NCBI GenBank assembly: GCA_017454745.1
Contig: JAFTCL010000019.1
Coordinates: forward strand, 1 to 54,448
Length of the DNA stretch: 54,448 bases
From: Kiritimatiellia bacterium
Lineage (GTDB): Bacteria > Verrucomicrobiota > Kiritimatiellia > RFP12 > UBA1067
Direction of reading: 5' to 3'
Numbering within the stretch: position 1 is the stretch's first letter; the number at the start of each line of letters is the position of its first letter. Under the pieces are notes generated by a model. The model was not told the origin of the DNA and did no database searches. It saw only the letters and a list, made by a program, of their open reading frames with translations. Below are positions 4,109 to 45,994 of the stretch, in pieces. The translations under genes were made by a program, and so were the position numbers.

Positions 4109-4116
4109 GGCGGGAT

Positions 4117-5997: not shown

Positions 5998-6028
5998 TAA
6001 GAGCTTTGGGTTGGTGATTTTGGAGTTA

Positions 6029-7840: not shown

Positions 7841-7859
7841 CCCCTTAGAGAGGTGACCC

Positions 7860-23682: not shown

Positions 23683-24327
23683 TCAAAACTCCAGCGACCC
23701 GAAACATTCGGGAAGATGGAAGTTCAATGCCGTCACCGGAGACCAGCTTAACCAGTGCGGATGCGAGGTTTTGTCGCCGCATTTGTAGAAATTCGCCCGC
23801 CACGGATGGTCGAAATCCACTTCACCGATGTGCTGTTCGAAAATCGCAAGCGGGATGCGGTAACATACCGACCACTGGATCGGATCGGTAATTTCCGGAT
23901 CAACCGTTCGGGGCAGGGTTGAAATTATTTCCACCGTTCGGCACTCATCCGGCGTTAGGGCGGTGAATTTCGCAAGACCGTTCGGGGTCCGGGTCGGGTC
24001 CTCGATGTGAGAGCAGAGAAGCGTCCCCCCGGCGTTGATCTCGAAATTAAAATACCCCCGTCCGGGTTTGGGTTCAACAAAAAATTCCACACAGCTGTCG
24101 GTGCAAACCGGACTGTTGAATTCCGTCTGCACCGAGCGCACGTAACGGTCGTTGACGTCGAATCGCACGTATAGGAATTTCTGTCCGCGCAAAACCCGGA
24201 ACTTTACGGTTGGCGTGTGGTTGGACGATTCCGGCCGCCGGTTGGCCACATTGCCAGTTTCGGCGGCTTCGAAATCGACCTTTGCCAAGTCGGTGTCGGC
24301 AATCGAGTTTACACGGTATGTCGGCAT
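23683..24327 (-). CDS. Hypothetical protein, possibly a CBM9/DOMON-like carbohydrate-binding fold
   Basis: Start placed at the internal Met (MPTYRV) so that it does not overlap sppA. Aromatic- and Cys-rich ~210-aa protein. Fold assignment from memory. Confidence 0.3.
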   Translation of the reverse strand: MPTYRVNSIADTDLAKVDFEAAETGNVANRRPESSNHTPTVKFRVLRGQKFLYVRFDVNDRYVRSVQTEFNSPVCTDSCVEFFVEPKPGRGYFNFEINAGGTLLCSHIEDPTRTPNGLAKFTALTPDECRTVEIISTLPRTVDPEITDPIQWSVCYRIPLAIFEQHIGEVDFDHPWRANFYKCGDKTSHPHWLSWSPVTALNFHLPECFGSLEF

Positions 24328-24332
24328 TTGGG

Positions 24333-25418
24333 TTACAGTCCCGGATTCCAACGGTACTGGAGTTGCGGCCCGCGCTCTTTTAACAGATTTTGCAATTCGG
24401 TGCTTAAACCGTATTTCGGTCGCTTGAAAAAACTTAAAAAATTTTCGCGCTCCTTGTAACGGTAGATGCAAACCGATTTTTCGTCGAGCAGTTCGGCCAG
24501 CTTGCTGTAGGCATCCTCGATATACCCGATTTCATCGATAAGTCCGTTGGCTTTGGCCTGCTCGCTGGTGAAGATCCGTCCGTCCGCAATCTGTTTAACT
24601 TTGCTTAACGGCAGTTTGCGGTTCTCCGCCACCAGCCCGGCGAAACGCTCGTACATCGCGTTGACGGTCTCTTGGATGATTTCTTTATGCGCGTTTGAAA
24701 CCGGTTGGAAGGCGTTCAACAAATCCTTGTTGTTTCCGGATTTTACGGTTACATCGGACACTCCAAGTTTTTCCGCGAGTTGTGACACGTTGTAACTCTG
24801 CATAATCACGCCGATCGACCCCGTGATGGTGGTGGGGTGGGCGATGATGTAATCCGCCGCCAAAGAGATGTAGTAGGCCCCCGAAGCTGCGGTGTCGCCC
24901 ATAATGGCCACAACCACCCGCCCCTCTTTCGCTGCCTTGAATTGTTTCAGTGCGTGGTAGATGATGTCACTGGCGGTGACGCCTCCTCCTCCGCTGTCAA
25001 CTTCCAACAGGATACCGGAGATGTCTTCGTCTAAAGTGGCGCGGCGGATGGCGCGAAGCGCGAATTCGGTGGTGTTTTCTATCCAAGGGGAACTTTCACC
25101 CAGCATAATCATTCCTGTTATCGGAATGCGCACCACGTTGACGTCACCTTCGCCGGCCGACCATACTTCCTCAAAGTCGGGGAACTCGTCTTCTCCAGCC
25201 GAACTTTGCGGATCAGATTCGAAGATGTCCGGGAAACGCTCTTTAAGTTGCTTGGAAAATGCCCCTAATATCACCAACCCCGCAAGAATGATTAAAAACG
25301 TAATAAGGCATCCAAATCCGCAACCATGCTTTTTTTTATTCGGCGGTGGGGTGTTCACCCTAACTGTAGTTTCTTCAACAACAGCATCTTCCACCATAGC
25401 TTCGTCCGTTGATTCCAT
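24333..25418 (-). CDS. sppA: Signal peptide peptidase SppA (S49), 36K type
   Basis: N-terminal TM (LITFLIILAGLVILG). S49 core: GDTAASGAYYISLAADYIIAHPTTITGSIGV with Ser nucleophile and Lys dyad context. Confidence 0.8.
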   Translation of the reverse strand: MESTDEAMVEDAVVEETTVRVNTPPPNKKKHGCGFGCLITFLIILAGLVILGAFSKQLKERFPDIFESDPQSSAGEDEFPDFEEVWSAGEGDVNVVRIPITGMIMLGESSPWIENTTEFALRAIRRATLDEDISGILLEVDSGGGGVTASDIIYHALKQFKAAKEGRVVVAIMGDTAASGAYYISLAADYIIAHPTTITGSIGVIMQSYNVSQLAEKLGVSDVTVKSGNNKDLLNAFQPVSNAHKEIIQETVNAMYERFAGLVAENRKLPLSKVKQIADGRIFTSEQAKANGLIDEIGYIEDAYSKLAELLDEKSVCIYRYKERENFLSFFKRPKYGLSTELQNLLKERGPQLQYRWNPGL

Positions 25419-25697
25419 TGGCTATTCTCCTCTAATTGAAAAAACGATGTAATTTTACCATATCCCGCAAAAAAAAGTCAATGAATGTAGTGAGTTTTTT
25501 ATTGTTGATCGCGGATGGCCATATTGCGAAAGTAACGGAATAAAATCGGCCCGCTATTGTCTCGCATATTTGCTTTACTTTGCCTGCATGAAAATGATAC
25601 CATTCTTTTTGTTCCTGCGGAGGAGGTTTTGGGGATTATCGCATAGCATATAGGTGACATGCTCGTCCTTTGTAGGATACAGAATGGAGGCGAATTC

Positions 25698-27350
25698 ATG
25701 GGGATTTTTTCCGACAGATGTTGGGCGTTGATCGATAGAACAACCGGCAGGGCTTTGACTGGTGAAGCGTTGAAGGAGGCTCAAAAAGACCCGCGTTGGC
25801 CGCGCTGCGGCACCGCAGTAAGCAAGCAGGCCCGGTTTTGCCGTTCATGCGGGGCACCGGCTCCTGGCGGATGGTGGAAATGCCCGGCGTGCAACAAGTG
25901 GATCGGTAACGACGCGCGTCACTGTCCTCATTGCAATGAGCCGCTTTATCCGGAAGACCGAGTGGCTATTGCCGGTGGTGTGTGGCGCAAAGAGCCACGC
26001 CTGTTTGCCCAACGTTTTGAGATTGGAGATGTCAAACGGCTTTTAACTCAAGAACTGCTCATCCAAGAGGGGACTCTTGCGATTGTCATGGACGGTGGAC
26101 GCGTTTGCGGGTTGATTGAATCCGGTAGGCACAACCCAGATTCTCTTGCCCGTAAGATTAACTGGTTCGGTAATCCTCCTCCTCGTAGCGTGGTGTTGGT
26201 GGATGTAGGCGAGGTCATTGCTCCTTTGCATATCGAGGGGCTTAGGACCGCAGAGCATTTTCCAATAGAGTTTTACGGTGAAGCGATCCTGCGTTTCAAG
26301 GGTGACATCAACGCTGCCAGGTCTTTTACGGCAAATGTCCTCAAGGAACAGCGTTCCTGCGAATTTTCTGACCTAACCATGCGTCTTGAACCCGCTATTC
26401 GTGGTGTGGTCGATGAAATGTGCACCACTTCAACTCTGGACGATTTGGTGCGCGACCCTGACCGTCGGATTCGCTTGCACGAAATTATCACTTCGCGAAT
26501 CAAGGCAGACCTTGCCGCTTGCGGATTGGAGGCAGAGCGTGTTTCTTCGGCCGAGTTTACCGGTGATAAGTATGAGGAGTACGCCGAGAATCTTGGGCAG
26601 GTTGACGAGGAGCGCCGGGAGATAGAATACCGTGCCGCACTCCGCAAACTGGCCGATCAGGAGGCGATGGATCAGTACAAGGATGCCGACGCGTTGCGAA
26701 GCTACAAGGAGATAATCGACCATGAGTTTCGCGTGTCTCACGAAACCCGCGAACGCGAGTTTGCCTTATTGAAACGAGAGTGGGAACATGACGACATCAA
26801 GTACAGGTGGTTACTTGAACTTGAGAAGCAAGAACATGATCATGTGATTGATACGAATGGCCATGTGCATGTAAATGAGATTAATCTCCTTGATGCTAAC
26901 GGTCGACTTGATGTAACCAAGGTTCAAGCCGAAATTGACAGAGTTGTCAATGACGAGAAGATTGACGAGTCGAAGAAATGGCTTGAGGTGCGTCGACTGA
27001 AGATGCTTTTGGAACAGGAGAACAAACGACTTGACGCTGAACGTCGCAAGAATATGACGATCGAGCAGATGATTGCCGATGTCGAGGATCCCGAGGTTCG
27101 TTCGCAGTTGCTGGAGGTGTTTAAACTTAAGATTGAGCAGCAACGGATCGAGCGAAACGTCAATATGTCCCCAGAGCAGTTACTTGCCGAATTGGGGCAG
27201 GATCCAGTTAACGCAAGACTCGTTGCCAAGATGGAAGAGTTGTTCCATCATGCCGCTGACCGTGAGGACAAAAATCTCGGAAAGATGCTTGAACCGGCTG
27301 TTGAGGCAGCAAAGCATCCGTCTATCCAAAACGGGCCGATTATCAAATGA
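25698..27350 (+). CDS. Zinc-ribbon protein with a putative SPFH/band-7-like domain and a long C-terminal coiled coil
   Basis: N-terminal double zinc ribbon (CGTAVSKQARFCRSCG; CPACNKWIGNDARHCPHCN). Central region (GTLAIVMDGGRV...SVVLVDVGEVIAPL...TMRLEPAIRGVVDEMC...RIKADLAACGLE) has the SPFH-like alternating pattern, then an ~250-aa charged coiled coil. ggagg RBS before the ATG at 25698. Confidence 0.5.
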   Translation: MGIFSDRCWALIDRTTGRALTGEALKEAQKDPRWPRCGTAVSKQARFCRSCGAPAPGGWWKCPACNKWIGNDARHCPHCNEPLYPEDRVAIAGGVWRKEPRLFAQRFEIGDVKRLLTQELLIQEGTLAIVMDGGRVCGLIESGRHNPDSLARKINWFGNPPPRSVVLVDVGEVIAPLHIEGLRTAEHFPIEFYGEAILRFKGDINAARSFTANVLKEQRSCEFSDLTMRLEPAIRGVVDEMCTTSTLDDLVRDPDRRIRLHEIITSRIKADLAACGLEAERVSSAEFTGDKYEEYAENLGQVDEERREIEYRAALRKLADQEAMDQYKDADALRSYKEIIDHEFRVSHETREREFALLKREWEHDDIKYRWLLELEKQEHDHVIDTNGHVHVNEINLLDANGRLDVTKVQAEIDRVVNDEKIDESKKWLEVRRLKMLLEQENKRLDAERRKNMTIEQMIADVEDPEVRSQLLEVFKLKIEQQRIERNVNMSPEQLLAELGQDPVNARLVAKMEELFHHAADREDKNLGKMLEPAVEAAKHPSIQNGPIIK

Positions 27351-28765
27351 GCATAACCTGTCCAAAATGTGGGCGGCGTACTTCCGAGGGTGCGTTTTGT
27401 GAAAGATGCGGTGCGGATATTTCAAATGCTGCGTCGCCCATAACGGTGCCATCTCCACCTTTGCCCCAAGAGGACATTTTCCCTATGAAAGGGTCGATTG
27501 AAAAGGAACCCTTTTCAGTTGATGATTGTGCTCCCACCGTGCCAGAGGCGGTTCCGTCTGTTATAAAATCGGTTGAGACCCCGGTGTCATCGACCATCAT
27601 TCCCTCGTTTCCGCCCCTGTATTCCCAGCCGTTCGCAGGGACAAGACCTGATCTGGAGGTGGAGTTCGACTCCTTATGTTTTCTTGTTGAGGGATGTCCG
27701 GGGATGTTGCGTTTTAGGCTGACCCCGCGTAATGTTTCCGGAGCAGGGTTCGATGAAATATGTCTTGTTTTGGCAAAGCAAGACTCTGCAGGACAAGTTC
27801 ACTCGCGTACGATTAGCCGGTTGACCCGTGTGCGGGAGATACTTATCCAATTACCGGAACAATCTGCTGGTGTGCATGTTTTTTCATTGGAGTTGGATTG
27901 TCGTGTAGGCAATACCAGATATCAATTTGAGACCGAGACTTCAGTGATGTCCATACGCCCCAATGAGGCGAAGCAATGCGCAGAAAGCATCGTGATGAAC
28001 ATCACTAACAATATTTCAAACGGCAATGCTTCAGACATTAGACTTTCACAAAACGCCTCACGGGATTTGGAGCGACTGGCTGAATCTAGAGACCCATTGT
28101 CTGAACTTCGAAAGTTGGTAAACGGCTATTCTCGGGCTTATCAAAAACTTGAAGTTTTCGAAATCGGGCAATCCGTTACAACGCCTCCGGAGAATGCCGC
28201 CCGTGAAACAGCGGCCATTGAATTCTTTGGCCGCCAAATCACGTTGTTTGTCAAAAGCGAAGTGACCTTTGGTCGAAAAAGCGAATGTGACATTTCGCTC
28301 CGTCCGTTGGCAGGGGTTTCTCAAGAGATCGTTGACCGATACCGTCGCATCAGCCGTCATCATTGCCGATTTGAATTTTCGGACAGAGGCGTAACCGTAA
28401 GAGATGAGTCAACTGGCGGAACATTTTGGAATGGGCAGCGGATTAACGGCACCTTGACATTGCCCAAGTCGGTCCAGGGAACCTTTTCGTTCGGTAGATG
28501 CGGCGTAGATGCGGTTACGCTGGCCGTAAAATCCTTTAATAATGCTTTTATACTGTCCAGGACGGACGGGAAGCCTGATAAGTTCGTGATTTTCAAAGGT
28601 GCGTTGGATATGGGTTGCGTGGACACTGCTTTGGCCGGTATTTCCGTTTCCTTAACCCGTGGCGCGTTAGAATGGTGTAAAGACGTTCGCCGAGGGTGGT
28701 TCATACCCGGTGCTTTATTATGCGACGGTCCTGCGCGAGTTAAACCCGAATTGAAAGGAGAATGA
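27347..28765 (+). CDS. Zinc-ribbon plus FHA-domain protein
   Basis: N-terminal CPKCGRRTSEGAFCERCG. C-terminal FHA signature VTFGRKSECDISL....ISRHHCRFEF.DRGVTVRDESTGGTFWNGQRI (G-R...S-xx-H...N). Start overlaps the upstream stop (ATGA). Confidence 0.7.
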   Translation: MSITCPKCGRRTSEGAFCERCGADISNAASPITVPSPPLPQEDIFPMKGSIEKEPFSVDDCAPTVPEAVPSVIKSVETPVSSTIIPSFPPLYSQPFAGTRPDLEVEFDSLCFLVEGCPGMLRFRLTPRNVSGAGFDEICLVLAKQDSAGQVHSRTISRLTRVREILIQLPEQSAGVHVFSLELDCRVGNTRYQFETETSVMSIRPNEAKQCAESIVMNITNNISNGNASDIRLSQNASRDLERLAESRDPLSELRKLVNGYSRAYQKLEVFEIGQSVTTPPENAARETAAIEFFGRQITLFVKSEVTFGRKSECDISLRPLAGVSQEIVDRYRRISRHHCRFEFSDRGVTVRDESTGGTFWNGQRINGTLTLPKSVQGTFSFGRCGVDAVTLAVKSFNNAFILSRTDGKPDKFVIFKGALDMGCVDTALAGISVSLTRGALEWCKDVRRGWFIPGALLCDGPARVKPELKGE

Positions 28766-29352
28766 CAATGGGATTTCTGTTTTTTAAAACCGGCAAAGAA
28801 AAAGAGCGCGCCGAGCGTAGGGAACACCGGCATGCGTTGCGCCGCGCGGAAAGCGCTGTAGATGAGGTTGATGAGCGCATCAAACGCATGGAGAAGGATG
28901 CTGAAGTGGAATGGGAAAAAGCCAAAGAGGCGACACGCGAGGGCAAGTCAGCAGCCGCGCAGCGTGCTTTGACTTCTTATCGTGCCGCTCAGGTGTTGGC
29001 CACCAAGCTTGAGCAAAAGAAGTGGGTGTTTAAGCAAGTGTTGATGAAACTCGAAACCGCTGGCACTGACTCAGAATTTGCCAAAGCGCTCGAAATGGTT
29101 AATCGCGTCACCAACATCAACCCTGAGTTAGTTGAGGATGTGTTTGACGAGGCAGGTGACCTGCTTGCTGAGGCGGGAGATGCCGACAAGTTCTGGGCGC
29201 AACTTTATGGGAAGGAGATTGAGGGATCGAAATCCGCACTCCAAGACCACATTCCTTCGATGGAAGAATTGGAGAAAAACCTTCAGGAGGAGGTGGCCGG
29301 AAAAATCGCCAGCGCCGCCGTTTCGCCGGAATCACTGGAGAAAGAACTGTAG
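28762..29352 (+). CDS. ESCRT-III/Snf7-family (CHMP-like) protein
   Basis: ~195 aa. N-terminus MGFLFFKTGKEKERAERR resembles the CHMP N-terminus MGLFGK. Basic helical hairpin followed by an acidic helical C-terminus (ELVEDVFDEAGDLLAEAGDAD...MEELEKNL). ATGA overlap with the FHA gene. Confidence 0.6.
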   Translation: MTMGFLFFKTGKEKERAERREHRHALRRAESAVDEVDERIKRMEKDAEVEWEKAKEATREGKSAAAQRALTSYRAAQVLATKLEQKKWVFKQVLMKLETAGTDSEFAKALEMVNRVTNINPELVEDVFDEAGDLLAEAGDADKFWAQLYGKEIEGSKSALQDHIPSMEELEKNLQEEVAGKIASAAVSPESLEKEL

Positions 29353-29368
29353 GCCGGGGTCATAATTT

Positions 29369-29998
29369 ATGAGAAAGTTGTTGTTTGCGTTGTTTTGCCT
29401 TTTGTACGCGTCCGTTCTTGCCAAGACTTGTCCGAATTGCAACTGCAAGGTACTTGATTCGGATGCGTTCTGCCCCAATTGCGGGAGAGGTCTCGCGGAG
29501 TCTCCGAAGCCGGTCCCTGCCGCGCCAAAAGCCAACCCGTCGGCCCAAAGCGAGTCCCGTTCCGTCCAGGAGCCAAAGGCTGCGGAAACGCCTTACGGTT
29601 CGCGTTCCGACCGGTCGGTTGGTAGCAGCAGCATAATACCGCTCAAGCTTTCGATTTTAGATCCGCTGGCTCTTCCGGTCGAGAAGGATTGCACTGTGTG
29701 CGGACTACACATTTCCGCCATTTACGGCGAATGTGGAGTCTTGTACGGTATACAGATTGCTGGCCTGGGGGAGAAATGCCGCAAAATGTACGGTGCCGCC
29801 GTGGCCGGCATCGTAAACGATGCGACAGATGCCTACGGCATACAGATTGGACTGTTCAACGTCGCCGAACATATGCGTGGCATTCAGATTGGCTTCGCCA
29901 ACTACAGCAAGCGGATGTCAGGTGTGCAGATTGGCGTGCTTAACACCATAGACCGGTCTTCAGTCCAGTTCATGCCAGTATTGAACATGCATTTTTAG
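29369..29998 (+). CDS. Secreted zinc-ribbon protein with 14-residue G[IV]QIG repeats
   Basis: Signal peptide, then CPNCNCKV...CPNCG, a Pro/Ala/Ser linker, and 4-5 tandem ~14-aa repeats (YGIQIAGLGE / YGIQIGLFNV / RGIQIGFANY / SGVQIGVLNT). Confidence 0.45.
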   Translation: MRKLLFALFCLLYASVLAKTCPNCNCKVLDSDAFCPNCGRGLAESPKPVPAAPKANPSAQSESRSVQEPKAAETPYGSRSDRSVGSSSIIPLKLSILDPLALPVEKDCTVCGLHISAIYGECGVLYGIQIAGLGEKCRKMYGAAVAGIVNDATDAYGIQIGLFNVAEHMRGIQIGFANYSKRMSGVQIGVLNTIDRSSVQFMPVLNMHF

Positions 29999-30044
29999 AT
30001 GCGCAGGTAAATTCTAGACCAGCCAAACGGGAAAACTTGTCGCC

Positions 30045-31151
30045 ATGCAATCGATGACAGAAAAGATGAAGGGTTTCGCGGAAACTTGTTCGGCGGCGGT
30101 GAAGTCAAGAGATTTTGCGACGGCGGCAAAGGCCGCGACTGCTGCCGCCGACTGCGCTGACATTCTGGCTTCGCGCACAGTCGGCATTGTTGCCGAGGCT
30201 TACGCCAAAGATTCTGCGTCGTGGCGCGAACTGGCGAAGAAGCTGATATCTGCGGTCGGCAAGCTTCCGCAAAGTGGGGACCGGCCGGCTGTCGACTCAT
30301 CGGGCGATGTCGGGAAAGAGTGGCTGCTGGCTGAAAAGCCCGACGTGACTTTCGACGACATCGCCGGGATGGAGGAGGCGAAGCGGGTTATCAACGAAAT
30401 GGTTCTCTACCCGATGAGATCGCCGGAGAAGGCACGGGCGCTGGGGCTTAACCCCGGTGGCGGGGTATTGCTGTTCGGCCCCCCCGGCACCGGCAAGACC
30501 ATGCTGGGTAAGGCCATTGCCGGGGCTTTGGAATCGCCCTTTTATTATGCTTCTGGGGCGGATTTGCGTTCAAAATGGTACGGTGAATCAGAACAACGGC
30601 TCTCGCAACTGTTGAATGCCGCCAAAGCGCAACCAATAGCGGTGGTGTTTTTGGATGAAATCGAATCGTTATTACCCAAGCGGAATGAAGAGTCTCATGC
30701 GGCGGACAATCGTGTGGTAACGCAGTTTTTGGCCGACTTGGGCGGTTTTCGAGACTCCAAAAATCTCCTGTTGGTTTTGGGTGCTACTAACAAACCTTGG
30801 GATATAGATGAAGCGGTGTTCCGCACTGGCCGCTTTGATGAAAAGGTTTACATTGGTCCTCCTGATTTGGCCGCGCGGAGGAAAATTCTGGAATTGAACG
30901 TAAAAGGCGCATCGCTTGCTAAAGATATGGATTTGGGGACGTTGGCAATTGAAACCGCAGGTTTTTCCGGGTCTGATTGTGCGGCTGTAGTGGCGGCTGC
31001 GAAACGTTGCGCACTTGGTCGCGCCATACGAGACAATGCAGACCCAATATTGACAACAGAGGATTTCGCAGAGGCTATGCGTCGTATCCCGTCCAGCATT
31101 AATGATGCTATTCTTGCTCCTTACCGCAAATTCTTGGAGGAACGGTTTTGA
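30045..31151 (+). CDS. Vps4/katanin/spastin-clade AAA+ ATPase with an N-terminal helical (MIT-like) domain
   Basis: PDVTFDDIAGMEEAKRVINE...LLFGPPGTGKTMLGKAIAG...SKWYGESEQ...VFLDEIESLL...LVLGATNKPWDIDEAVFRTGRFDEKVYIGPPDLAARRKILELNV aligns closely, motif by motif, with yeast/human Vps4. Single AAA cassette, 368 aa, no protease or second ring domain. Confidence 0.85.
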   Translation: MQSMTEKMKGFAETCSAAVKSRDFATAAKAATAAADCADILASRTVGIVAEAYAKDSASWRELAKKLISAVGKLPQSGDRPAVDSSGDVGKEWLLAEKPDVTFDDIAGMEEAKRVINEMVLYPMRSPEKARALGLNPGGGVLLFGPPGTGKTMLGKAIAGALESPFYYASGADLRSKWYGESEQRLSQLLNAAKAQPIAVVFLDEIESLLPKRNEESHAADNRVVTQFLADLGGFRDSKNLLLVLGATNKPWDIDEAVFRTGRFDEKVYIGPPDLAARRKILELNVKGASLAKDMDLGTLAIETAGFSGSDCAAVVAAAKRCALGRAIRDNADPILTTEDFAEAMRRIPSSINDAILAPYRKFLEERF

Positions 31152-32014
31152 AGATTACCTGCTTTATTTGCGGTATCGAACTGCCTAACCGCTGGGCGGT
31201 GGCTAAGCGCGAGACGGTGGATGGCGTGGAGCGGTGTTATTGTCGTTTGCACGCGAATTCATTTGACGGTAATAAAACAACCGATGTGAAAGGAGATAAC
31301 ATGGAAGAAAAACAAGAACGCGAAATCATCCAAGCGGCGACACCTGCCTTGACACGCAGGGCCTGGGCGGAATGTTCTGCCTTGGCTGTGAAGATTGGCG
31401 GCGGGGTAAAGACGCTGTGGGGGAAGGTGCATCCTGATCGTTCCCCTGAAGCGATGCTTGCTGTGCTTAACGCTGATCGAGATGCAAATCGGAAACAGCT
31501 TAACGCAATGAAGCCAGAACTGGATTCGGTGTATCGTGAAATTGTCGAAAAAAAACGGTTGTATCAAACTGCTGCGCCAGCGAGGCAACGGTTACTGAAA
31601 ATTGAATTGCAGACGTTACTGACGCGTTACAAAGGGCTTGAGCGCGAGTTCGCCATTTTGAACGAGAATGAGCGATCAATTGAAACCGTCAAAGGCAGGT
31701 TTTTGGAGGTGCTGGCCCACGGATTACGCGGAAAACTTGATGCCAATATGGTGGACCGGTTGGCCGACACCGTCGATGACAAGGTTGATGAGGCCGAGGA
31801 CGTTCAAGATGCATTGAACGATTTGGAACGCGCAGGTAAGCGACGTGAACGACTTGGCGATGACTTTGATGCTGAGCTGGCCGGGTTTGATGGGGAACTC
31901 GGCATGGCAGATAACGTTAACGATGAGTTGAAAATCCCAACCGAAGAGGAACACAACCATGAAATGCACACTGAAGACACTGGCGCTGTCGCTGCTGACG
32001 GCGTTATCGCTTAA
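31148..32014 (+). CDS. Zinc-ribbon plus Snf7/ESCRT-III-like helical protein with an acidic C-terminal tail
   Basis: N-terminal CFICG...CYCRLH ribbon, helical core (LNAMKPELDSVYREIVEKKRLYQ...LKIELQTLLTRYKGLEREFAILNENERSIETVKGRFLEVL) and an acidic tail (DDFDAELAGFDGELGMADNVNDELKIPTEEE) that resembles MIM-like motifs. TTG start overlapping the Vps4 stop is uncertain. Confidence 0.4.
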   Translation: MKITCFICGIELPNRWAVAKRETVDGVERCYCRLHANSFDGNKTTDVKGDNMEEKQEREIIQAATPALTRRAWAECSALAVKIGGGVKTLWGKVHPDRSPEAMLAVLNADRDANRKQLNAMKPELDSVYREIVEKKRLYQTAAPARQRLLKIELQTLLTRYKGLEREFAILNENERSIETVKGRFLEVLAHGLRGKLDANMVDRLADTVDDKVDEAEDVQDALNDLERAGKRRERLGDDFDAELAGFDGELGMADNVNDELKIPTEEEHNHEMHTEDTGAVAADGVIA

Positions 32015-33179
32015 CGTCTCCGCTGGCGAGACTGAATTATCATATGCTATTGAAGATGCCGCATTCCAGACTGTAACGCGGCTTTCCGCTGACCAACGGC
32101 TTAAAGAATTAAAAAACATCGCGTTTGTGCGGCTTTCCGCACCCAACGGCGCGGCGGCATTGAAACTTGAGAGTAACGTTTCGCAAGTTTACGAAAGTGC
32201 GTTGGTATCGGTGCCATGCGACCTGCGTTTTGTGGTCCATTCTTCTCACGATCCCGAGTGGACGTTAATCGACGAAGTGTTCGATCAGGCTGCGGATTTC
32301 GATAGCTACAACCCAGCGACCAACCCGAAATTGAAACAACTTAAACTCGCCGATGCCTTGTTGTACGGGCAGGCGGTGGATGCGAAGGAAGCCAAAGACG
32401 GTAGTCGAACCACAATTCGTATCTCGATGCGGCTGATTAAGGTCGCGACGGCGGAAATGTTATGGGGTGGCGTGATTGAAGGTAGCTACGATGATGTTGG
32501 TCCTGATAACGAGCAATTGAACCTCTTTGGCCGCAAAGCCATAGAGGCGGCGGCTCGGGACGCGGTTGCGAAACTTCCTGCCAACCTTGACGGCTATGGC
32601 GTGTTTTTGCTTCCGTTTGACGGTCCGGCGGGTCGAGCCATGACACAAACCTTTCTCAATGAGTTGGTCGCGGCGGGCCGCCATGAAAAAATCCGTGTTT
32701 ATGATTTGCCCAATGGTGGTGTGGCCGACCGTATGTTGGCCAGATTCTTGCGCGAACGTGCCGGAGCTGAAACGGGCCTTAACGAGTCGTTGCTCAAAAA
32801 AGTTGAGGCTAAGGCTGTCGGAAAAACTGCAGAAGGTAAGATGGCGATTCTTACCGGCATGGTCACTTCCGTTAGAGTTTTCCCCGAAACTGCAGTCGAT
32901 CCCACTGGGCAGCCTGTGAACCGTCTGACTGGTTCTTTCACCGCAGCCAGACCAAACGCCACGCGCTTTGAGGTGGTTGCCGATCTCAAGATCCGCGACA
33001 TTAACGACAAATTCCGTGTGGTGGCGGCCGTTGGGGCACACGGAACTTACGAGCGCGAGATTGGCAACGATATCTCCGATCAACTTCGCTCGTTCGTTAC
33101 AGTGCGTAACTGCGTTGTTGCGTTACTGATTGTGCTGTTGGTTTGGTTTGTCAGCCGTTTTATGCTGCGTGTACGTTAA
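31959..33179 (+). CDS. Secreted hypothetical protein with a C-terminal membrane anchor
   Basis: Signal peptide LALSLLTALSLNVSAGE. C-terminal hydrophobic helix VVALLIVLLVWFVSRF. No recognised motifs. Confidence 0.4.
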   Translation: MKCTLKTLALSLLTALSLNVSAGETELSYAIEDAAFQTVTRLSADQRLKELKNIAFVRLSAPNGAAALKLESNVSQVYESALVSVPCDLRFVVHSSHDPEWTLIDEVFDQAADFDSYNPATNPKLKQLKLADALLYGQAVDAKEAKDGSRTTIRISMRLIKVATAEMLWGGVIEGSYDDVGPDNEQLNLFGRKAIEAAARDAVAKLPANLDGYGVFLLPFDGPAGRAMTQTFLNELVAAGRHEKIRVYDLPNGGVADRMLARFLRERAGAETGLNESLLKKVEAKAVGKTAEGKMAILTGMVTSVRVFPETAVDPTGQPVNRLTGSFTAARPNATRFEVVADLKIRDINDKFRVVAAVGAHGTYEREIGNDISDQLRSFVTVRNCVVALLIVLLVWFVSRFMLRVR

Positions 33180-33203
33180 CCCCAATAATCGAAAGGGCAG
33201 ATA

Positions 33204-34022
33204 ATGAAAAAAATGTTATGTTTGGCCTTCCTGGCGGTCATGTTCTCCGGATGTGTGAGTTATGTTGAACAGCCGGCGGTCACTCCGTACGAGCCGCAAA
33301 ACAATTCAGGAGAAACCCCGGTCGCGCAAATCACCGCCCATCCCTATGTTGAAGGGGCAACCGTTCGACCGTTACGGGTGTTGGTTTCCATTGACGGTGG
33401 CAAAGAAGGTGGTGACGCTTATCAGTTCAGCAGTTATGTGCAATCTAATTTGGAGGGAGCCCTGGCGGCACGAGGGTACCGGGTGGTTTACGAGGCTCCT
33501 GCCGAGATTTTGCTTTCTACTCTAGGGTCGGTAACATGCAGCGTTTTAAATCGACGTGGCACTCGATTGGTTTACCGTGGCGATGCCGACGTGCAGGTAA
33601 CCCGCGCGGCGTTTGAAAACAAAATGCGCAATGAAACCATGAAAGACGTGGTGGCGAGACGCCGGTTTGATGTCAAAAGTGCAGAATCGCGGGATCGCGA
33701 GTTTGGTATAAAGTCGTTGGCGGATACGCTAAACACTGATCTTTCCGTATGGGCAGCGGAAAGCGTAACGCGAATTGCCGGGGCGTTGGAACGTTGCGAA
33801 TTCACCATCCGCAACGCATGGAACTACCGCGGCGAGGAGGACTACCCTTCCCGTTTTACGGCCACCGTCAACCGGATGCCTGGCGTTTATCGCTGTACTG
33901 TCCTGTCCACGGATAACGTTTCGCGTTCCATCCGGGCGGAAGTCGTTTACGAGCGCGATATGTTCCCTGAAGGATTCGTAAACGCGCTCTACACCGTGCG
34001 CAGTCTCAATCTGTATCGTTAA
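33204..34022 (+). CDS. Lipoprotein, hypothetical
   Basis: Lipobox MKKMLCLAFLAVMFSGC. Confidence 0.5.
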   Translation: MKKMLCLAFLAVMFSGCVSYVEQPAVTPYEPQNNSGETPVAQITAHPYVEGATVRPLRVLVSIDGGKEGGDAYQFSSYVQSNLEGALAARGYRVVYEAPAEILLSTLGSVTCSVLNRRGTRLVYRGDADVQVTRAAFENKMRNETMKDVVARRRFDVKSAESRDREFGIKSLADTLNTDLSVWAAESVTRIAGALERCEFTIRNAWNYRGEEDYPSRFTATVNRMPGVYRCTVLSTDNVSRSIRAEVVYERDMFPEGFVNALYTVRSLNLYR

Positions 34023-34045
34023 ACTCATTTGACAAAGGAAGTGCT

Positions 34046-34708
34046 ATGAAAAAAACGCCAATCTTTCTAACCGTTGTAACCGCAGTTGGCATCTCGTTCG
34101 CCCAAGGACCTGGTCGGCAGGTTTACAAACCCGGTTTTTCGACTCCGCCTCCCCAGGGCGAAGTTCGCTATCAGGATTACAACCGCAATGTGGATGTCTC
34201 TCGGGACGTTTATGACCGCACTCCAGGCGGCGGGCACGTGTCGATGACTCCAATTGCGTTCGGATTCGGCACCTTCGGGATGCCGCATGGACGCAATTGG
34301 GCTGTCTGCGGGCTTCGCGTCAACTTTGGGCTTCCCGAGTTCACTACCGTTTATGAGGCAGTTTACGGTGTGGACGTGGGGCTGTCCGGCGAAACCAATG
34401 GTGAGAGTGGCGGCGTTCTGGTGAACCTTCTGAATAACACCACCCGTGATATGTACGGCATTGGCGTGGCGGGATTGTGGAACCGTTCGACCGGTATGGA
34501 CAGCCATGCTCTGCAGGTTGCAGTAGGGTTAAACAGCGCGGAAAAGATTGACGGGATCCAGATCGCCTTGGTCAACCGGGCGCAAGAGCTGCACGGGGTG
34601 CAGATTGGCATTTACAATCAGGCGATGCATGGCGGCGGTCTGCAGATTGGATTGTGGAATGACAACGGCCGAGGTTGCGGTACGCCAATCATTGGCATTG
34701 CTTACTAA
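34046..34708 (+). CDS. Secreted G[IV]QIG 14-residue-repeat protein, paralogous repeat module to 29369-29998
   Basis: Signal peptide. Repeats DGIQIALVNR / HGVQIGIYNQ / GGLQIGLWND with the same 14-aa period. Confidence 0.45.
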   Translation: MKKTPIFLTVVTAVGISFAQGPGRQVYKPGFSTPPPQGEVRYQDYNRNVDVSRDVYDRTPGGGHVSMTPIAFGFGTFGMPHGRNWAVCGLRVNFGLPEFTTVYEAVYGVDVGLSGETNGESGGVLVNLLNNTTRDMYGIGVAGLWNRSTGMDSHALQVAVGLNSAEKIDGIQIALVNRAQELHGVQIGIYNQAMHGGGLQIGLWNDNGRGCGTPIIGIAY

Positions 34709-34722
34709 AATTGGAGAGTATC

Positions 34723-35802
34723 ATGAACCGCAAAGAATTGCTGAAGAAACAGTATGAGGAGCGTGTCGCAAGCCCAGAGGGAGGGTCGCGGCCGATGCCA
34801 GTCGCAAAAGGTCGCCCCCCCCGTCCCTATCGGAGAAGCGCATTCTGGCGTTGGTTTTGGCTGTTGTTTCTGATAACTTTACTGGGCGGTTTCTTCCATT
34901 GGCGGGAAGATGTCTTCGCGGTGTGGAACCGGATGTTCGACAAGGACGGCGGCAACCGGTTGTTCGGCTCCGTTCCGGAGAACAATGCCATCGGCGACCC
35001 GTATCCGACCACCCAACTCGGCCATTCGGCCGGCAGCTTGCCGGAAACGGTGGTTCGCCAGTATTTTGTGCCGAGCGAGGCGGAACTGGAGCAGTTGTTC
35101 GAATACGTCCGTTCGTCGCCGCACGTCAAGGAGAACCTTCAATACGCCAACACGATGAAATCCGTGCGTTTCTTCTACCTCGGGGACGATTCCACCGTCA
35201 ATGCATTTGCGTCACTCCGCAAGCTTGACGAGCGGAGTGACGAACTTACCCGCGTGATCTGTTTCTTTGGCGGCGCGGCGAGGTTCTCCCGGGTCGCGTC
35301 GCTGGCAGTCGCTGCGGAGCTGGACGGTGACAAGGGTGCCACCGCTAGGCTGATTAATGCGCTTACGCCTGCCGATTGCGGTAAAATGGATGACGAAGCC
35401 GTGGTCAGGATCGCGAACGCGGCGGGATTAGGCGCGGCTTTAGCTACTGATGCGACCAGAACCAAAGCTAAGTCCGTATCCGCCGGGATGATTCTCGGCA
35501 TCTTGGCTCATGAGTCTGGACACCAATCGTTGGGGCACGTTCTCAATACTGGTCGTAGTGAAAATCTTGAAATCTCCCGTAACCAGGAACGCGAAGCAGA
35601 TTTGTTTGCTTCGAGTGTCATTTCCGCCAGCCCATTTGGTGAGTATATGTTTGCCGGGACGCTTTTCTGGTATTATGCGCTGGCTACTCAAGAGGGCGGT
35701 AAGCAGGAAAACACACATCCCCTCTCAAAAGAACGGTTTGAAAATCTCGTTCGCTCCAACCCCGAGAAGGCTGCTGCAATGGGTGTTTCGCTCAAGGAAT
35801 AG
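34723..35802 (+). CDS. Membrane-anchored HExxH zinc metalloprotease, M48/HtpX-like
   Basis: N-terminal TM (FWRWFWLLFLITLLGGFF). HESGHQSLGH with a downstream ...EREAD... glutamate, as in the M48/M56 arrangement. Start at the ATG at 34723 after a ggagag RBS. Confidence 0.5.
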   Translation: MNRKELLKKQYEERVASPEGGSRPMPVAKGRPPRPYRRSAFWRWFWLLFLITLLGGFFHWREDVFAVWNRMFDKDGGNRLFGSVPENNAIGDPYPTTQLGHSAGSLPETVVRQYFVPSEAELEQLFEYVRSSPHVKENLQYANTMKSVRFFYLGDDSTVNAFASLRKLDERSDELTRVICFFGGAARFSRVASLAVAAELDGDKGATARLINALTPADCGKMDDEAVVRIANAAGLGAALATDATRTKAKSVSAGMILGILAHESGHQSLGHVLNTGRSENLEISRNQEREADLFASSVISASPFGEYMFAGTLFWYYALATQEGGKQENTHPLSKERFENLVRSNPEKAAAMGVSLKE

Positions 35803-35897
35803 AAATCAGGAATAGTAGATGCGGACGGCGCTTTTGTTTGTTGTCCGCATCTATCAAACAACTGTCGAACAGTAGTACACTATCAGGATGACGATTT

Positions 35898-40823: not shown

Positions 40824-40880
40824 TTACTTGAGCGGTTGCGTTAGGGTTGACAGTTAACAAAACTTTTGGCGAACAAAACC

Positions 40881-43800: not shown

Positions 43801-44111
43801 AACTCGATTCTAACGGTTGCCGTACCCACCGGGTGGACGAGAAAGACGTTGGCAACGAGCTGGGCATTGTAGGAATGAGCGGCAACGTCTGGGAGTGGTG
43901 CCGGGACTGGTACGATGGAGACTATTACTCGCGTTCGCCGGAAACCGATCCCTGCAACACGGCATCGGGCGGTAACCGGGTGTTGCGCGGCGGCGGCTGG
44001 AGCGCCCATGCGGGGGGCTGCCGCTCCGCGTACCGCTACAGGTACGGGCCCGGCCTCCGCGTCTACGACTTCGGCTTCCGCCTCGTCTGCTCCGCAGGAC
44101 CGCGCGAGTGA
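40881..44111 (+). CDS. Receptor-type Ser/Thr protein kinase (kinase 2), the DGR variable protein: kinase, TM, Ala/Glu/Arg-rich coiled coil, C-terminal FGE-sulfatase (C-type lectin fold) domain carrying the VR
   Basis: Kinase motifs as in kinase 1 (HRDIKPSNVVV, DFGLA, TRPYMAPE). TM LWAAAAVAAAGVTAW. FGE domain MVWCPAGSFMMGS...KPAHRVTISKGFWIGKYPVTQAQW...NVWEWCRDWY...RVLRGGGWS...GFRLVCS. The last ~49 codons are the VR. Confidence 0.85.
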   Translation: MDDFYDDRSLRENAAEPEKSFGSENTLVERQILGRIDQYELIRELGGGGFGTVYLARDTVSGVEVAVKGLPPAIKNNLEELENIRANFALVQRLHHPNIAAALVLHQAAAVDYSDAGTRDKLRVLPGETLLVMQYAPGVTLSQWRKQFPGRKVPLEKALDIVSQIASALDYAHSQKIIHRDIKPSNVVVETRADGSAVARILDFGLAAEVHSSMSRISKEVCDVSGTRPYMAPEQWLGRRQGPATDQYALAALFHELVTGEVPFSSVFDTGDPVVMMNVVGREVFAAAPELPKPVRLALCRALAKNPEERFAACGDFAAALGGAKAKPAGGHRLLKGVAALWAAAAVAAAGVTAWQWHARRDAARREAENLARAEYAAETNRLAEAVSKAAATAAAAWNGTEPYRLDPEGLETQLSELSNLWAGVSAEWRPDPDNAAVSLSNRLAEVSAAAEAIASVSAKMKPLSEARERVRLERRRELDARAKEEAAKDAAKRAKEAQERAAELVRLKTRLNIKRSDAEAKMRELDGYRAAPEGLEGRIASADGQWKTLKALPEPESLEQAETALDMADKAETQISLDLAWLRENKAGRDAAKAAVGEISAILRGDAADFNAEKYAAGRYGEAARLREAGDAAFKRGDFAAAGKSLAAAREKFADAAREARDFCVKTRVEAAREYFKAGKWKECIAEADKALEWAPGNDAAARLKKDAEDHLVPTAELAATVDGREVQAEVTEAGRGPRRTPAELGRLTPNGRIGPFKFTHAENGRRYEGTIDELTVDWRGPKRLECRLQERKEPRAGDVKTVIMPGGAAMEMVWCPAGSFMMGSDNGGSDEKPAHRVTISKGFWIGKYPVTQAQWASMYNKLGPITGSSAEPSCFSASGGGKSAVSGMDTSRFPVERVSWDDCDQMVELLNRAQSECVFALPTEAQWEYAARGGPLSRGYTYSGGNYLDRLGWYYENSGRGRLDESDWDVKKLDSNGCRTHRVDEKDVGNELGIVGMSGNVWEWCRDWYDGDYYSRSPETDPCNTASGGNRVLRGGGWSAHAGGCRSAYRYRYGPGLRVYDFGFRLVCSAGPRE
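43960..44106 (+). repeat. DGR variable repeat (VR), 147 bp, at the 3' end of kinase 2
   Basis: Aligns gap-free with 45254-45400. All ~21 internal mismatches fall at positions where the TR has adenine. Confidence 0.85.
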
Positions 44112-44146
44112 AGGGGCGGAGCGAAGATGGGGCTGCGGGCCAGGCG

Positions 44147-45950: not shown

Positions 45951-45994
45951 TTCGCCGTGCGGGAAAATATGCGGCAAGGTATGGGGGCGATGCG

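Follow-up and report, generated by a model that had tools for sequence, protein, structure and literature searches.

Results

The window analysed here is a 54,448-nucleotide stretch of a Kiritimatiellae MAG contig; its host is a PVC-group gut bacterium. All open reading frames of a preliminary description were recovered on the + strand at the coordinates given there, and we refer to eleven genes of the locus as g1 to g11. The first, g1 (25698–27350), has GGAGG 7 nt before its ATG; its product combines two zinc ribbons with an SPFH/Band_7 domain and has a long coiled coil as its tail. It is followed by g2 (27347–28765) with a zinc ribbon and an FHA domain (residues 306–369). The ATGA overlap joining these two genes at 27347 was confirmed in the sequence. 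A similar overlap had been described at 28762, and ATGA does occur there, but we prefer the ATG at 28768 as the start of g3 (28768–29352) since AGGAG lies 8 nt upstream and all orthologues open with MGFLFF; 28762 could also serve as the start of this ORF. The genes for the ATPase g5 (30045–31151) and for g6 (31148–32014; 288 aa) overlap, with the g5 stop running into the TTG start of g6 at 31148 (TTGA). Two Snf7-like proteins were thought to flank the ATPase. Only g6 adjoins it, whereas g3 is separated from it by g4 (29369–29998), a 209-aa protein with a signal peptide, a zinc ribbon and LA_2272-type surface repeats (NCBIfam LA_2272_repeat, E 1e-14). The g4 gene is a variable insert, and its slot holds a Ser/Thr kinase in other genomes.

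Downstream of g6 lie genes for g7 (31959–33179), a secreted protein whose C-terminal part holds a TM segment and which weakly matches LpoB in one region, and g8 (33204–34022), a lipoprotein of unknown family with a lipobox-like N-terminus. Both are found in the related loci L005, L006, L008, L009 and L011, where g7 likewise follows g6 and g8 is 38–59% identical. They are followed by g9 (34046–34708), a secreted LA_2272-repeat protein (NCBIfam LA_2272_repeat, E 1e-9) whose position is conserved among loci, and g10 (34720–35802), a membrane M48-like metallopeptidase (Pfam Peptidase_M48, E 5e-5) also present in L006, L009, L010 and L015. An S49 peptidase is encoded near the operon as well. The adjacent kinases mentioned earlier are three Ser/Thr kinases, all on the + strand: g11 (35898–40823) with 21 Sel1 repeats (Pkinase E 3.5e-40, Sel1 E 7e-232), a second (40866–44111) with a C-terminal FGE-sulfatase/C-type-lectin-fold domain (Pkinase 2e-39, FGE-sulfatase 3.5e-47) and a third (45947–49705) with ankyrin and Sel1 repeats (Pkinase 6e-40). 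The FGE-sulfatase/C-type-lectin-fold domain of the second kinase is the target of a diversity-generating retroelement (VR/TR pair).

The SPFH and FHA assignments were borne out by matches above the Pfam cut-offs. Band_7 was matched by g1 with E 1e-8 (35.8 bits, cut-off 23.6; residues 135–327, numbered on the longer ORF read from 25659), together with Zn_ribbon_3 and DZR, and g2 matched FHA with E 4.7e-12 (46.6 bits against 20.7). Among 15 related genomes, g1 was present in 14 (28–58% identity), g2 orthologues in 12 (25–33% identity) and a kinase at or within the operon in all 15 (L001–L015).

The g3 protein carries the N-terminal hydrophobic motif MGFLFFK and a basic α1 helix. Its own Pfam Snf7 match (E 4.3e-5, 23.7 bits) falls slightly below the 27.3-bit cut-off, but Snf7 was matched by 11/11 g3 orthologues and by 68 of the 104 aligned distant representatives of the family, with a best E of 2e-31. 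The family numbers 141 representatives at E≤1e-3 in a search of 1.8 billion, and an MxxxLF N-terminus is conserved in it. When its profile was compared with the PDB, yeast Snf7 (9e-13) and Heimdall (Asgard) ESCRT-IIIB (4e-9, full-length) were retrieved, with CHMP3, CHMP2A and CHMP1B at weaker scores; PspA/Vipp1 was absent from these matches, and PspA_IM30 gave no Pfam match on g3. Thus the ESCRT-III identity proposed for g3, the 196-aa protein, is upheld, and the comparison points to the Snf7/CHMP type and not to a generic coiled coil. Judged by sequence, g3 is a true Snf7-type ESCRT-III protein.

The g5 protein is a single-cassette classical AAA ATPase that matches Pfam AAA (E 5e-37, 127.7 bits), AAA_lid_3 and, weakly, Vps4_C (E 0.014). 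Its ATPase motifs are intact: Walker A is GPPGTGKT, Walker B has DE at 204–205, the pore loop reads SKWYGESE, and R260 and R263 of the SRH are the arginine fingers. In the AF2 model, helices at 4–20, 24–44 and 48–71 are followed by a disordered linker (73–94), and a C-terminal helix spans 354–367; there is neither a β-domain nor a Cdc48 N-domain. This three-helix N-domain, linker, single AAA cassette, KW pore loop and C-terminal helix are the layout of Vps4. Over 238 residues of the AAA core, g5 is 42% identical to yeast Vps4.

The preliminary description also claimed a bona fide Vps4-clade ATPase. Its Vps4/CdvC layout stands, but the clade assignment is weakly resolved by the sequence comparisons. 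The NCBIfam CdvC model aligned with residues 39–365 at 199 bits against a cut-off of 650, CDC48 was the top-scoring NCBIfam model (216 bits), and raw similarity was highest to p97/Cdc48 D2, p97/Cdc48 being the top match in both PDB sequence and Foldseek searches; p97 was likewise the next-best PDB match of a genuine CdvC. In NJ trees the g5 family groups with Vps4, CdvC, katanin and spastin, outside Cdc48 D1, PAN and FtsH. Bootstrap support for this group fell from 100% to 39% once more distant bacterial members were added, whereas a wider group that includes Cdc48 D2 was robust (93%). With PDB-validated sequences only, g5 joined CdvC and not either Cdc48 domain in 70–95% of bootstraps.

The g6 protein has an N-terminal Cys/His zinc-ribbon-like module, a divergent helical core resembling ESCRT-III and a conserved DFDAELAGF helix. 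No direct Pfam match was obtained. Structure prediction gave a hairpin followed by α4/α5, and hhalign comparison with the Snf7 family gave E 2e-4, exceeding all 22 controls; six distant loci have a g6 homologue of ~200 aa close to the Snf7-like gene. On the other side, fold matches do not separate g6 from generic helical hairpins. Of the proposal of a second ESCRT-III protein, the hairpin and the remote Snf7 similarity remain, and we consider g6 a probable, very divergent second ESCRT-III, with moderate support. The motif DDFDAELAGFDGEL is conserved, with F240, L244 and F247 invariant. It had been taken for the C-terminus, but is followed by ~35 predicted-disordered residues (250–288) and so is not the end of the protein.

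Two further proposals were not established. The three-helix N-domain of g5 had been suggested to be an MIT domain; its signal of MIT homology was not above controls. The Snf7-like proteins had been described as MIM-bearing, and neither C-terminal motif, in g3 or g6, fits the MIM1 or MIM2 consensus. The wider Snf7-like family has a MIM1-like RLxxL terminus, which this g3 lacks.

The operon genes are conserved and syntenic in 15 species-level genomes, far beyond what would be expected of chance ORFs. Twelve of these 15 close loci extend far enough to show the AAA gene, and it is present in all 12. In distant loci, one of them from a Planctomycetia MAG, the AAA gene lies directly 3′ of the Snf7-like gene or of its second tandem copy (10/10), often with a 4-nt overlap, and the encoded AAA proteins align with g5 over their full length, N-domain included. 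The locus L020 holds three tandem Snf7+AAA pairs, and a named protein of the same family comes from a phage-like locus of an Omnitrophota MAG. The adjacency was kept in every locus examined, even where identity has fallen to 23% (Snf7-like protein) and 31% (AAA protein). Conservation of the neighbourhood, with the two genes linked in 12 close and 10 distant informative loci, is the strongest evidence for a Snf7/AAA system. The distant loci lack SPFH, FHA and Ser/Thr kinase genes and have caspase-like and papain-like peptidases instead. The SPFH, FHA and kinase genes are thus additions specific to Kiritimatiellia and Lentisphaerae, outside the conserved core, and any regulatory model built on them is limited to that one lineage.

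Discussion

Together these results lead us to propose that the operon probably encodes the ESCRT-III/Vps4 machine in a bacterial (PVC-group) version. In this model, g3 would bind the inner membrane from the cytoplasmic side, using MGFLFFK and its basic first helix, and would polymerise there, probably together with g6. The AAA ATPase g5 would form a single hexameric ring on the plan of archaeal Vps4/CdvC and recognise the polymer through its three-helix N-domain, the probable contacts being the acidic-hydrophobic C-terminal helices of g3 (IPSMEEL...EEV) and g6 (DFDAELAGF). Using ATP, it would pull subunits through the KW pore loop, and the resulting filament turnover would remodel the membrane. 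In Kiritimatiellia and Lentisphaerae, the zinc-ribbon SPFH protein g1 may act as a membrane-microdomain scaffold and the zinc-ribbon FHA protein g2 may read phospho-threonine marks; with Ser/Thr kinases bearing sensor-like repeats, they could allow for signal-triggered assembly at particular membrane sites. Co-transcription of the lipoproteins and of the M48 protease points to the cell envelope as the trigger or the target. We infer that the role is most likely phospho-regulated local membrane repair or remodelling, and not cell division.

Several observations could also be read as a conflict or programmed-cell-death system, and not as a housekeeping machine for remodelling; kinases here and caspase-like proteases in other lineages would sense attack through their variable sensor domains and recruit Snf7/AAA as a protective or executing arm that seals or sheds damaged membrane, much as eukaryotic ESCRT-III repairs gasdermin or MLKL pores. 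Distant loci repeatedly encode Peptidase_C14 fused to FGE-sulfatase, LRR or Sel1 domains, along with DUF4384 and Peptidase_C1; the kinases here carry Sel1, FGE-sulfatase and Ank domains, one of them diversified by a DGR; and the three tandem Snf7+AAA pairs, the locus among phage-like genes and the AbiE genes adjoining L025 fit the same picture. We nevertheless regard it as unlikely, given that the operon keeps a stable place and its synteny across 15 species, that PADLOC returned only generic AAA matches (IetA, TRIP13) and weak peptidase matches on the M48-like g10 (Lit, CapP, peptidase_U41), that no pore-forming effector was identified, that a scan of viral contigs gave no relative and that Snf7 goes unmentioned in the two Aravind-lab conflict-system papers compared.

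We give still less weight to a Cdv-like scission machine by which PVC bacteria would divide, bud or form vesicles or internal membranes. The component logic is shared with archaeal ESCRT systems, CdvB/CdvC among them, g3 aligns full-length with Asgard ESCRT-IIIB, and the module reaches Planctomycetia, a class not known to carry FtsZ. However, Kiritimatiellia and Lentisphaerae are reported to retain FtsZ, Pfam and NCBIfam scans detected no homologue of CdvA, ESCRT-I or ESCRT-II, and a gene set that differs among lineages, with copy number rising to three pairs in L020, is unlike a core division machine. With only 141 representative clusters in 1.8 billion, the family is also rare and not PVC-universal. 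Similarly improbable, in our judgement, is a superficial likeness to ESCRT; g5 would then be a general Cdc48-like unfoldase or protease partner and each helical protein a generic coiled-coil scaffold. The top p97/Cdc48 matches in the PDB and Foldseek, the highest-scoring NCBIfam CDC48 model, the negative MIT and MIM comparisons, the generic fold matches of g6 and the nearby M48 and S49 peptidases would all suit such a partner, but a significantly Snf7-like g3, adjacency that persists at 23%/31% identity and a one-cassette g5 without a Cdc48 N-domain would not. Furthermore, p97 comes next-best in the PDB for a genuine CdvC too, and the trees exclude Cdc48 D1, PAN and FtsH.

An ESCRT-III/Vps4 machine thus remains our preferred reading. 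The locus had been called an uncharacterised system, and our literature search likewise found no published description. Recent reviews call the pairing of a Snf7/ESCRT-III protein with its own ATP-driven motor absent from bacteria, one from 2025 stating that bacteria appear to lack a Vps4-like ATPase (PMC7619361). On our reading, the present operon places such a pair in a bacterium.

The SPFH/FHA/kinase set echoes euryarchaeal ESCRT loci. Proteins of the FHA, STK and Znr-SPFH-CC kinds occur in archaeal ESCRT loci (Makarova et al. 2024, PMC10936438), and in the euryarchaeal Halo_FHA, Meth_adaptin and ‘Main’ clades, as here, a Vps4-like ATPase adjoins ESCRT-III genes and the locus includes an FHA protein and Ser/Thr kinases; the g1 architecture fits the description of their SPFH protein with coiled coil and zinc ribbon. 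In contrast, the hosts here are bacterial (Kiritimatiellia and Lentisphaerae, with the core also in Planctomycetia), adaptin-appendage, winged-helix (ESCRT-II-like) and CdvA-like parts were not detected, MIT is unrecognisable, the second ESCRT-III-like subunit has a zinc ribbon, and co-transcription extends to periplasmic lipoproteins and an M48 protease.

The crenarchaeal Cdv system (CdvB and CdvC/Vps4; PDB 4lcb, 4d80, 4lgm) offers a parallel in layout for g5. CdvC, at ~370 aa, is nearly equal in length and shares the three-helix N-domain, linker, single cassette, C-terminal helix, KW pore loop and NKPW motif, as well as the missing β-domain, and each ATPase adjoins a Snf7-family gene. However, g5 is only 33–34% identical to CdvC and scores 199 against the 650-bit NCBIfam cut-off, its SRH keeps RxGRFD, as is typical of Cdc48, PAN and FtsH, and not the RRF form, and this locus lacks CdvA and a winged-helix tail on the ESCRT-III protein. 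From the eukaryotic and Asgard systems the operon recalls the Snf7, CHMP and ESCRT-IIIB profiles matched by g3, the CHMP-like N-terminal membrane motif and, with its two different ESCRT-III-like subunits, the A-type/B-type pair. Unlike them, it has no ESCRT-0, -I or -II, ubiquitin link, MIM1/MIM2 consensus, Vps4 β-domain or Vta1, and no demonstrable MIT.

Among bacterial systems, PspA/Vipp1 proteins are ESCRT-III-superfamily polymers of the inner membrane involved in envelope stress and repair, and they work with PspF or, in Bacillus, with the SPFH protein YdjI; PMC10936438 cites an SPFH partner of one PspA. Those proteins are of the PspA type and g3 of the Snf7 type, and PspF, a transcription-activator AAA+ protein, is no Vps4-like unfoldase. 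Bacterial Vps4-like ATPases have been reported in Verrucomicrobia, Planctomycetes and other phyla, and ATP-dependent remodelling has been proposed for bacterial PspA/Snf7-AAA pairs (2024, PMC11237479). In the Vps4-like operons of that study a TPR-6TM protein replaces snf7, and its Snf7 contexts combine a two-cassette AAA with a membrane-anchored Snf7. By these descriptions, the present operon is set apart by a soluble Snf7 of ~200 aa paired with a one-cassette AAA and linked to FHA, SPFH and STK genes.

Organization of the operon

Between 25698 and about 49.7 kb, all genes discussed here lie on the forward strand, as do the other long ORFs examined. The operon opens with g1 (25698-27350), which encodes two zinc ribbons, a Band_7/SPFH domain and a long coiled coil, and g2 (27347-28765), which encodes a zinc ribbon and an FHA domain. 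Both domains exceed their Pfam gathering scores (Band_7, 35.8 bits against 23.6, residues 135-327; FHA, 46.6 bits against 20.7, residues 306-369), which bears out the preliminary description, where SPFH and FHA proteins had been placed beside a Snf7-like gene. That gene, g3 (28762 or 28768 to 29352; Pfam Snf7, E 4.3e-5), is followed by g4 (29369-29998; a signal peptide, a zinc ribbon and LA_2272 repeats), the AAA ATPase gene g5 (30045-31151; AAA, 127.7 bits) and g6 (31148-32014), which is without a family match. Three genes for secreted proteins or lipoproteins and one for an M48-like peptidase (g7-g10) come after g6, and three Ser/Thr kinase genes start at 35898, 40866 and 45947.

The operon as originally observed is confirmed with small corrections. 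The reported ATGA overlap of g1 and g2 at 27347 is present in the sequence. The ATGA at 28762 is present as well, but the likelier start of g3 is the ATG at 28768, because AGGAG lies 8 nt upstream and this start agrees with that of all orthologues. The g5/g6 junction at 31148 is a TTGA overlap. Two Snf7-like genes had been described as flanking the ATPase gene; both are in the operon, but g4 separates g3 from g5.

Several further features of the window were recorded. A CxxC...CxxC zinc-ribbon-like module opens four of the six proteins that the operon's first half encodes (g1, g2, g4 and g6; 25698-32014), and these N-terminal ribbons may constitute a shared docking, interaction or recruitment element. 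The divergent gene beside g1 (24333-25418, reverse strand) encodes a peptidase of the S49/SppA type that matches NfeD1b_N weakly; SPFH proteins classically pair with NfeD-type proteases. Downstream lie the parts of a diversity-generating retroelement (DGR), with the VR at 43961-44112, the TR at 45254-45405 and, between and over these copies, a reverse-transcriptase ORF at 44269-45540 (RVT_1, E 4e-17). The STK-FGE-sulfatase gene ends in ~150 nt that recur 1.3 kb downstream at 83% identity, and nearly all mismatches in the repeat core are A in the downstream copy. Because the DGR targets the end of this gene, one operon-adjacent kinase would be hypervariable in its sensor domain. Base composition is a mosaic: G+C is 0.50-0.54 across the operon (24000-36000) versus 0.54-0.61 in the upstream 22 kb, peaks at 0.63-0.65 over the DGR at 42-46 kb, and then falls to 0.45-0.46 at 48-52 kb.

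g3 is a Snf7-type protein by sequence

The g3 protein just misses the gathering score of Pfam Snf7 (PF03357; 23.7 bits against 27.3), and all 11 of its orthologues match the same family (best E 4.7e-7). Run exhaustively over 1.84 billion cluster representatives, phmmer returned 141 relatives, most of them ~210 aa long and aligned end to end, and 68 of 104 full-length distant representatives match Pfam Snf7 (best E 2.3e-31). PDB searches with single sequences or shallow profiles had no significant match to g3, to g6 or to the g5 N-domain, and the deep profile of 104 members was needed to resolve g3 there. That profile matched the yeast Snf7 core (9e-13), full-length Snf7 (5e-11) and, from end to end, Heimdallarchaeal ESCRT-IIIB (4e-9), and more weakly CHMP3 (5e-4) and CHMP2A and CHMP1B (both ~5e-3). 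PspA/Vipp1 was absent among these matches, and PspA_IM30 (PF04012) was not matched in any Pfam scan of the g3 and g6 proteins and their relatives. Profile positions 17-213 align with residues 10-216 of Heimdall ESCRT-IIIB, and the match to the yeast Snf7 core covers alpha1-alpha4. The alignments thus predict in g3 the ESCRT-III core of helices alpha1-alpha5, its hairpin basic and its C-terminal half acidic, and together with the Pfam matches they sustain its earlier assignment: judged by sequence, g3 is a Snf7-type ESCRT-III protein.

The two ends of the protein were also compared across the family. The N terminus, MGFLFFK followed by a Lys/Arg-rich stretch, is conserved; in the 104 representatives both M1 and a Phe (residue 6 of the 194-aa form, numbered F5 in the alignment of 11 orthologues) are nearly invariant. 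This segment resembles the motif by which CHMPs and Snf7 insert into membranes, and g3 accordingly carries a putative N-terminal motif of this kind. At the C terminus the wider family has two conserved motifs, IPSxDELMxxLExEVA and a terminal, MIM1-like IGEGRxRLKxLL. The latter is missing in g3 and its Kiritimatiellia orthologues, which keep only the internal IPSMEEL...EEV. The g3 protein has neither MIM1, (D/E)xxLxxRLxxL(K/R), nor the proline-rich MIM2, and stops before the MIM1-like end of its family.

The gene neighbourhood is conserved

Conservation of the neighbourhood, named at the outset as a test of the operon, was observed. Scanning a single genome for each GTDB species gave 15 related loci in Kiritimatiellia, Lentisphaerae and rumen or gut MAGs. 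In tblastn comparisons the recurring order is SPFH, FHA, Snf7-like, a kinase or LA_2272 gene, AAA, and then g6, g7, g8, g9, M48 and kinase, partly rearranged in L002, L010, L011, L014 and L015. The AAA gene is found in 12 of the 12 close loci with enough flank, in every case with a Snf7-family gene in the same operon; some g3 orthologues are named 'Snf7 family protein' by NCBI. Across the 15 loci a kinase is always present, g1 occurs in 14, g2 in 12 and g6 in 10, with identities as low as 47% for the AAA protein and 31% for g6.

More distant relatives of g3, on contigs that include a Planctomycetia MAG and metagenome contigs, define a smaller core. A gene for a 350-400-aa AAA protein directly follows the Snf7-like gene, or the second of two tandem copies, in all ten distant loci with enough flank, frequently with a 4-nt overlap. 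The core comprises up to four genes, encoding a g6-like protein (six loci), the Snf7-like protein, the AAA protein and an N-terminally anchored TM protein of ~300 aa (seven loci); the last has no homologue in the window. On the 11-kb contig L020 three Snf7-like and AAA pairs stand in tandem (1864-7873), and a fourth Snf7-like gene follows at 9066-9647. In L022 (160-11438), the pair lies amid phage-like genes (Lar restriction alleviation, NADAR, dUTPase, HD and many small ORFs), and NCBI names its protein from a 'Candidatus Omnitrophota' MAG. A phage or mobile element may be its carrier; a viral-contig scan with a single protein found no relative.

g6 is probably a divergent ESCRT-III member

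The g6 protein (288 aa) has no Pfam match of its own, and some of its relatives match Snf7 weakly (4 of 11 in one set and 3 of 14 in another). In an AlphaFold2 model from 38 sequences (pLDDT 77), residues 1-36 are predicted to form a small zinc-ribbon-like beta module, in which C5, C8, C32 and H35 are invariant. Short helices follow, then a hairpin of 42 and 52 residues (100-141/144-195) and two more helices, one at 199-230 and a short one at 238-247 bearing DFDAELAGF. The motif DDFDAELAGFDGEL, described as MIM-like, had been taken for the end of the protein, but a tail of ~35 residues (250-288), disordered in the prediction, comes after it. A Foldseek search of the PDB with this model returned nothing at E<1e-3; Asgard ESCRT-IIIB ranked fourth (E 0.2).

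In six distant loci the g6 HMM matches a ~200-aa gene close to the Snf7-like gene (E 7e-11 to 4e-3), directly upstream of it in L016, L022 and L024, and at a distance of one to three genes in L018, L019 and L020. Most of these distant proteins open with an amphipathic motif, e.g. MGIVKFITKLFF. Comparison by hhalign gave no signal between shallow g3 and shallow g6 alignments, and a probability of 1% between the deeper g3 family and the close g6 family. A signal appeared only once the distant g6-like genes were included: the broadened g6 family then aligned with the Snf7-like family at E 2.2e-4 (probability 45%, 97 columns), spanning alpha2/3, alpha4 and the C-terminal motifs, with a score of 34.1 against 20.6 for the best of 22 controls (two reversed and 20 column-shuffled). 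The proposal that g6 is a second ESCRT-III protein has the hhalign score and the predicted hairpin on its side, and the missing Pfam match and the lack of a Foldseek match at E<1e-3 against it. We conclude that g6 is probably a very divergent second protein within the ESCRT-III superfamily.

The ATPase has a Vps4-like architecture

The g5 protein (368 aa) is predicted to be a classical AAA ATPase with one cassette and a helical N-domain. Its motifs are intact (Walker A GPPGTGKT, Walker B D204/E205, pore loop SKWYGESE, sensor-1 N249 and SRH R260/R263) and are all invariant or nearly so in 13 orthologues. Pfam reports AAA and AAA_lid_3, and Vps4_C weakly, under its cut-off (E 0.014). In the AlphaFold2 model the N-domain helices (4-20, 24-44 and 48-71; pLDDT 82-91) are MIT-like in length and are followed by a disordered linker (73-94), the AAA cassette and a helix at 354-367, which would correspond to the Vps4_C helix after the lid. 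This layout is common to archaeal CdvC/Vps4, where CdvC likewise is without the eukaryotic beta-domain and has the same size (367 aa in 4lcb). It had been suggested that the N-domain could be an MIT domain. In four approaches no MIT signal rose above controls: Pfam and PDB profile searches of the N-domain gave no MIT match, and hhalign against a small MIT alignment scored 15.8 where controls reached 16.5.

The distant AAA proteins align with g5 over their full length, N-domain included, at 31-36% identity. They carry KY pore loops and RYHKWN endings, which resemble the CdvC ending AYEAW and presumably also the endings of spastin and katanin. One of them (L018:8973-10094) has a two-residue SRH deletion (VIR--RLGKQIYV) where g5 retains RTGRFD; such a deletion is typical of Vps4, katanin and spastin.

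Placement among AAA families was approached in several ways. Lists of homologous proteins gave close relatives only (54-100% identity) and were no help for deep classification. p97/Cdc48 ranks top for g5 by raw sequence similarity and by Foldseek, but a genuine CdvC query also places p97 right behind the CdvC entries in the PDB, because two-cassette proteins sum two domain scores; clade assignment from PDB or Foldseek rank was therefore dropped. Per-domain phmmer scores are nearly flat across references: 193 bits for p97 D2, 187 for Cdc48 D2, 176 for Cdc48 D1, 175.5 for yeast Vps4, 148-164 for CdvC, 157 for katanin, 154 for PAN and 151 for FtsH. Cdc48, p97 and VAT have two tandem cassettes and a double-psi-barrel N-domain, in contrast to the single cassette and helical N-domain of g5, which scores 216 bits on TIGR01243 against a cut-off of 803. 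The g5 protein is not an orthologue of crenarchaeal CdvC, since it scores 199.4 bits on the CdvC equivalog NF041006 (NCBIfam) against a cut-off of 650.

Neighbour-joining trees that combined provisional yeast, human, PAN and FtsH references with CdvC and p97/Cdc48 sequences from PDB alignments placed six PVC sequences of the g5 family in one group with CdvC, Vps4, katanin and spastin (100% bootstrap). When the references were limited to PDB-validated ones, PVC and CdvC split from D1 and D2 in 70-95% of replicates. After six distant bacterial members were added, support for the Vps4 group fell to 39%, and a wider group that includes Cdc48 D2 received 93%, leaving D1, PAN and FtsH outside. By the second criterion of Makarova et al. 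2024, ESCRT component genes nearby (PMC10936438), g5 qualifies as Vps4 because ESCRT genes are in its neighbourhood. Clade support declines as distant members enter; g5 has a Vps4-like architecture, and its membership of the Vps4 clade is plausible.

Discussion

The operon combines a Snf7-type subunit with a catalytically intact, one-ring AAA ATPase of Vps4 layout, and the linkage of their genes is tight and ancient. By analogy with the established ESCRT-III/Vps4 mechanism, g3, probably with g6, would polymerise on the inner membrane. A g5 hexamer, docked by its N-domain onto the conserved C-terminal helices, would extract subunits through its pore, leading to filament turnover. In the Kiritimatiellia lineage the SPFH protein could serve as a membrane platform, and the FHA protein and kinases as a phospho-switch. 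We favor signal-triggered membrane repair or remodelling over division, because both the M48 peptidase and the secreted proteins suggest a link to the envelope.

Three other roles were weighed against such membrane repair or remodelling. A generic unfoldase served by coiled-coil scaffolds has in its favor that the MIT scores of the N-domain stay within the controls, and against it the Pfam and PDB profile matches of g3. A role in conflict or cell-death signalling would suit the distant loci: across L016, L018, L019, L020 and L024-L027, caspase-like Peptidase_C14 proteins fused to FGE-sulfatase, LRR, Sel1 or S1 recur beside the core, together with DUF4384 and Peptidase_C1 (papain-like), and seven of these eight loci carry the ~300-aa TM protein as well. 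All eight lack SPFH, FHA and STK, and g7-g10 are likewise absent from the distant loci. PADLOC found no defence-system match past generic AAA and peptidase matches.

Cdv-like scission draws on the layout that g5 shares with CdvC, and Planctomycetia reportedly divide without FtsZ; the envelope genes beside g6 weigh on the other side. In its strongest form, PVC bacteria, Planctomycetia included, would hold a working archaeal/eukaryotic-type ESCRT-III/Vps4 scission machine that cuts or reshapes membranes in budding or division, in the release of vesicles or in the making of internal membranes, which we regard as improbable. Were it true, in other lineages the machine would be coupled to kinase or caspase signalling. 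Either Snf7-type ESCRT-III with a dedicated unfoldase would not be an archaeal/eukaryotic invention, or the whole machine would have been transferred and kept functional in bacteria.

If bacteria conserve a module in which Snf7 and a second ESCRT-III-like protein are joined by a Vps4-like one-ring AAA, it would give a simple bacterial system for ATP-driven ESCRT-III turnover, and it bears on the long argument over eukaryote-like membrane biology in PVC bacteria. Such a module would also connect remodelling of the ESCRT type with Ser/Thr-kinase/FHA signalling in this operon and with caspase-like signalling in the related loci.

A targeted full-text literature search found no published description of this operon. 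A 2025 review describes a Vps4-like ATPase as apparently absent in bacteria (PMC7619361; see also PMC8281802), a picture that the module would change, and Liu et al. assigned Snf7-type proteins to archaea and eukaryotes. Ravi et al. (PMC11237479) reported Vps4-like ATPases transferred to bacteria with a TPR-6TM gene in place of snf7, as well as a two-cassette AAA partnered by PspA or TM-Snf7. A close likeness is to euryarchaeal ESCRT loci, where FHA proteins and kinases occur alongside a Znr-SPFH-CC protein, in a study that covered archaea and eukaryotes and stated that homologues were not identifiable in bacteria (PMC10936438). With the present operon, transfer versus convergence of the FHA/STK/SPFH wiring seen in those euryarchaeal loci becomes testable.
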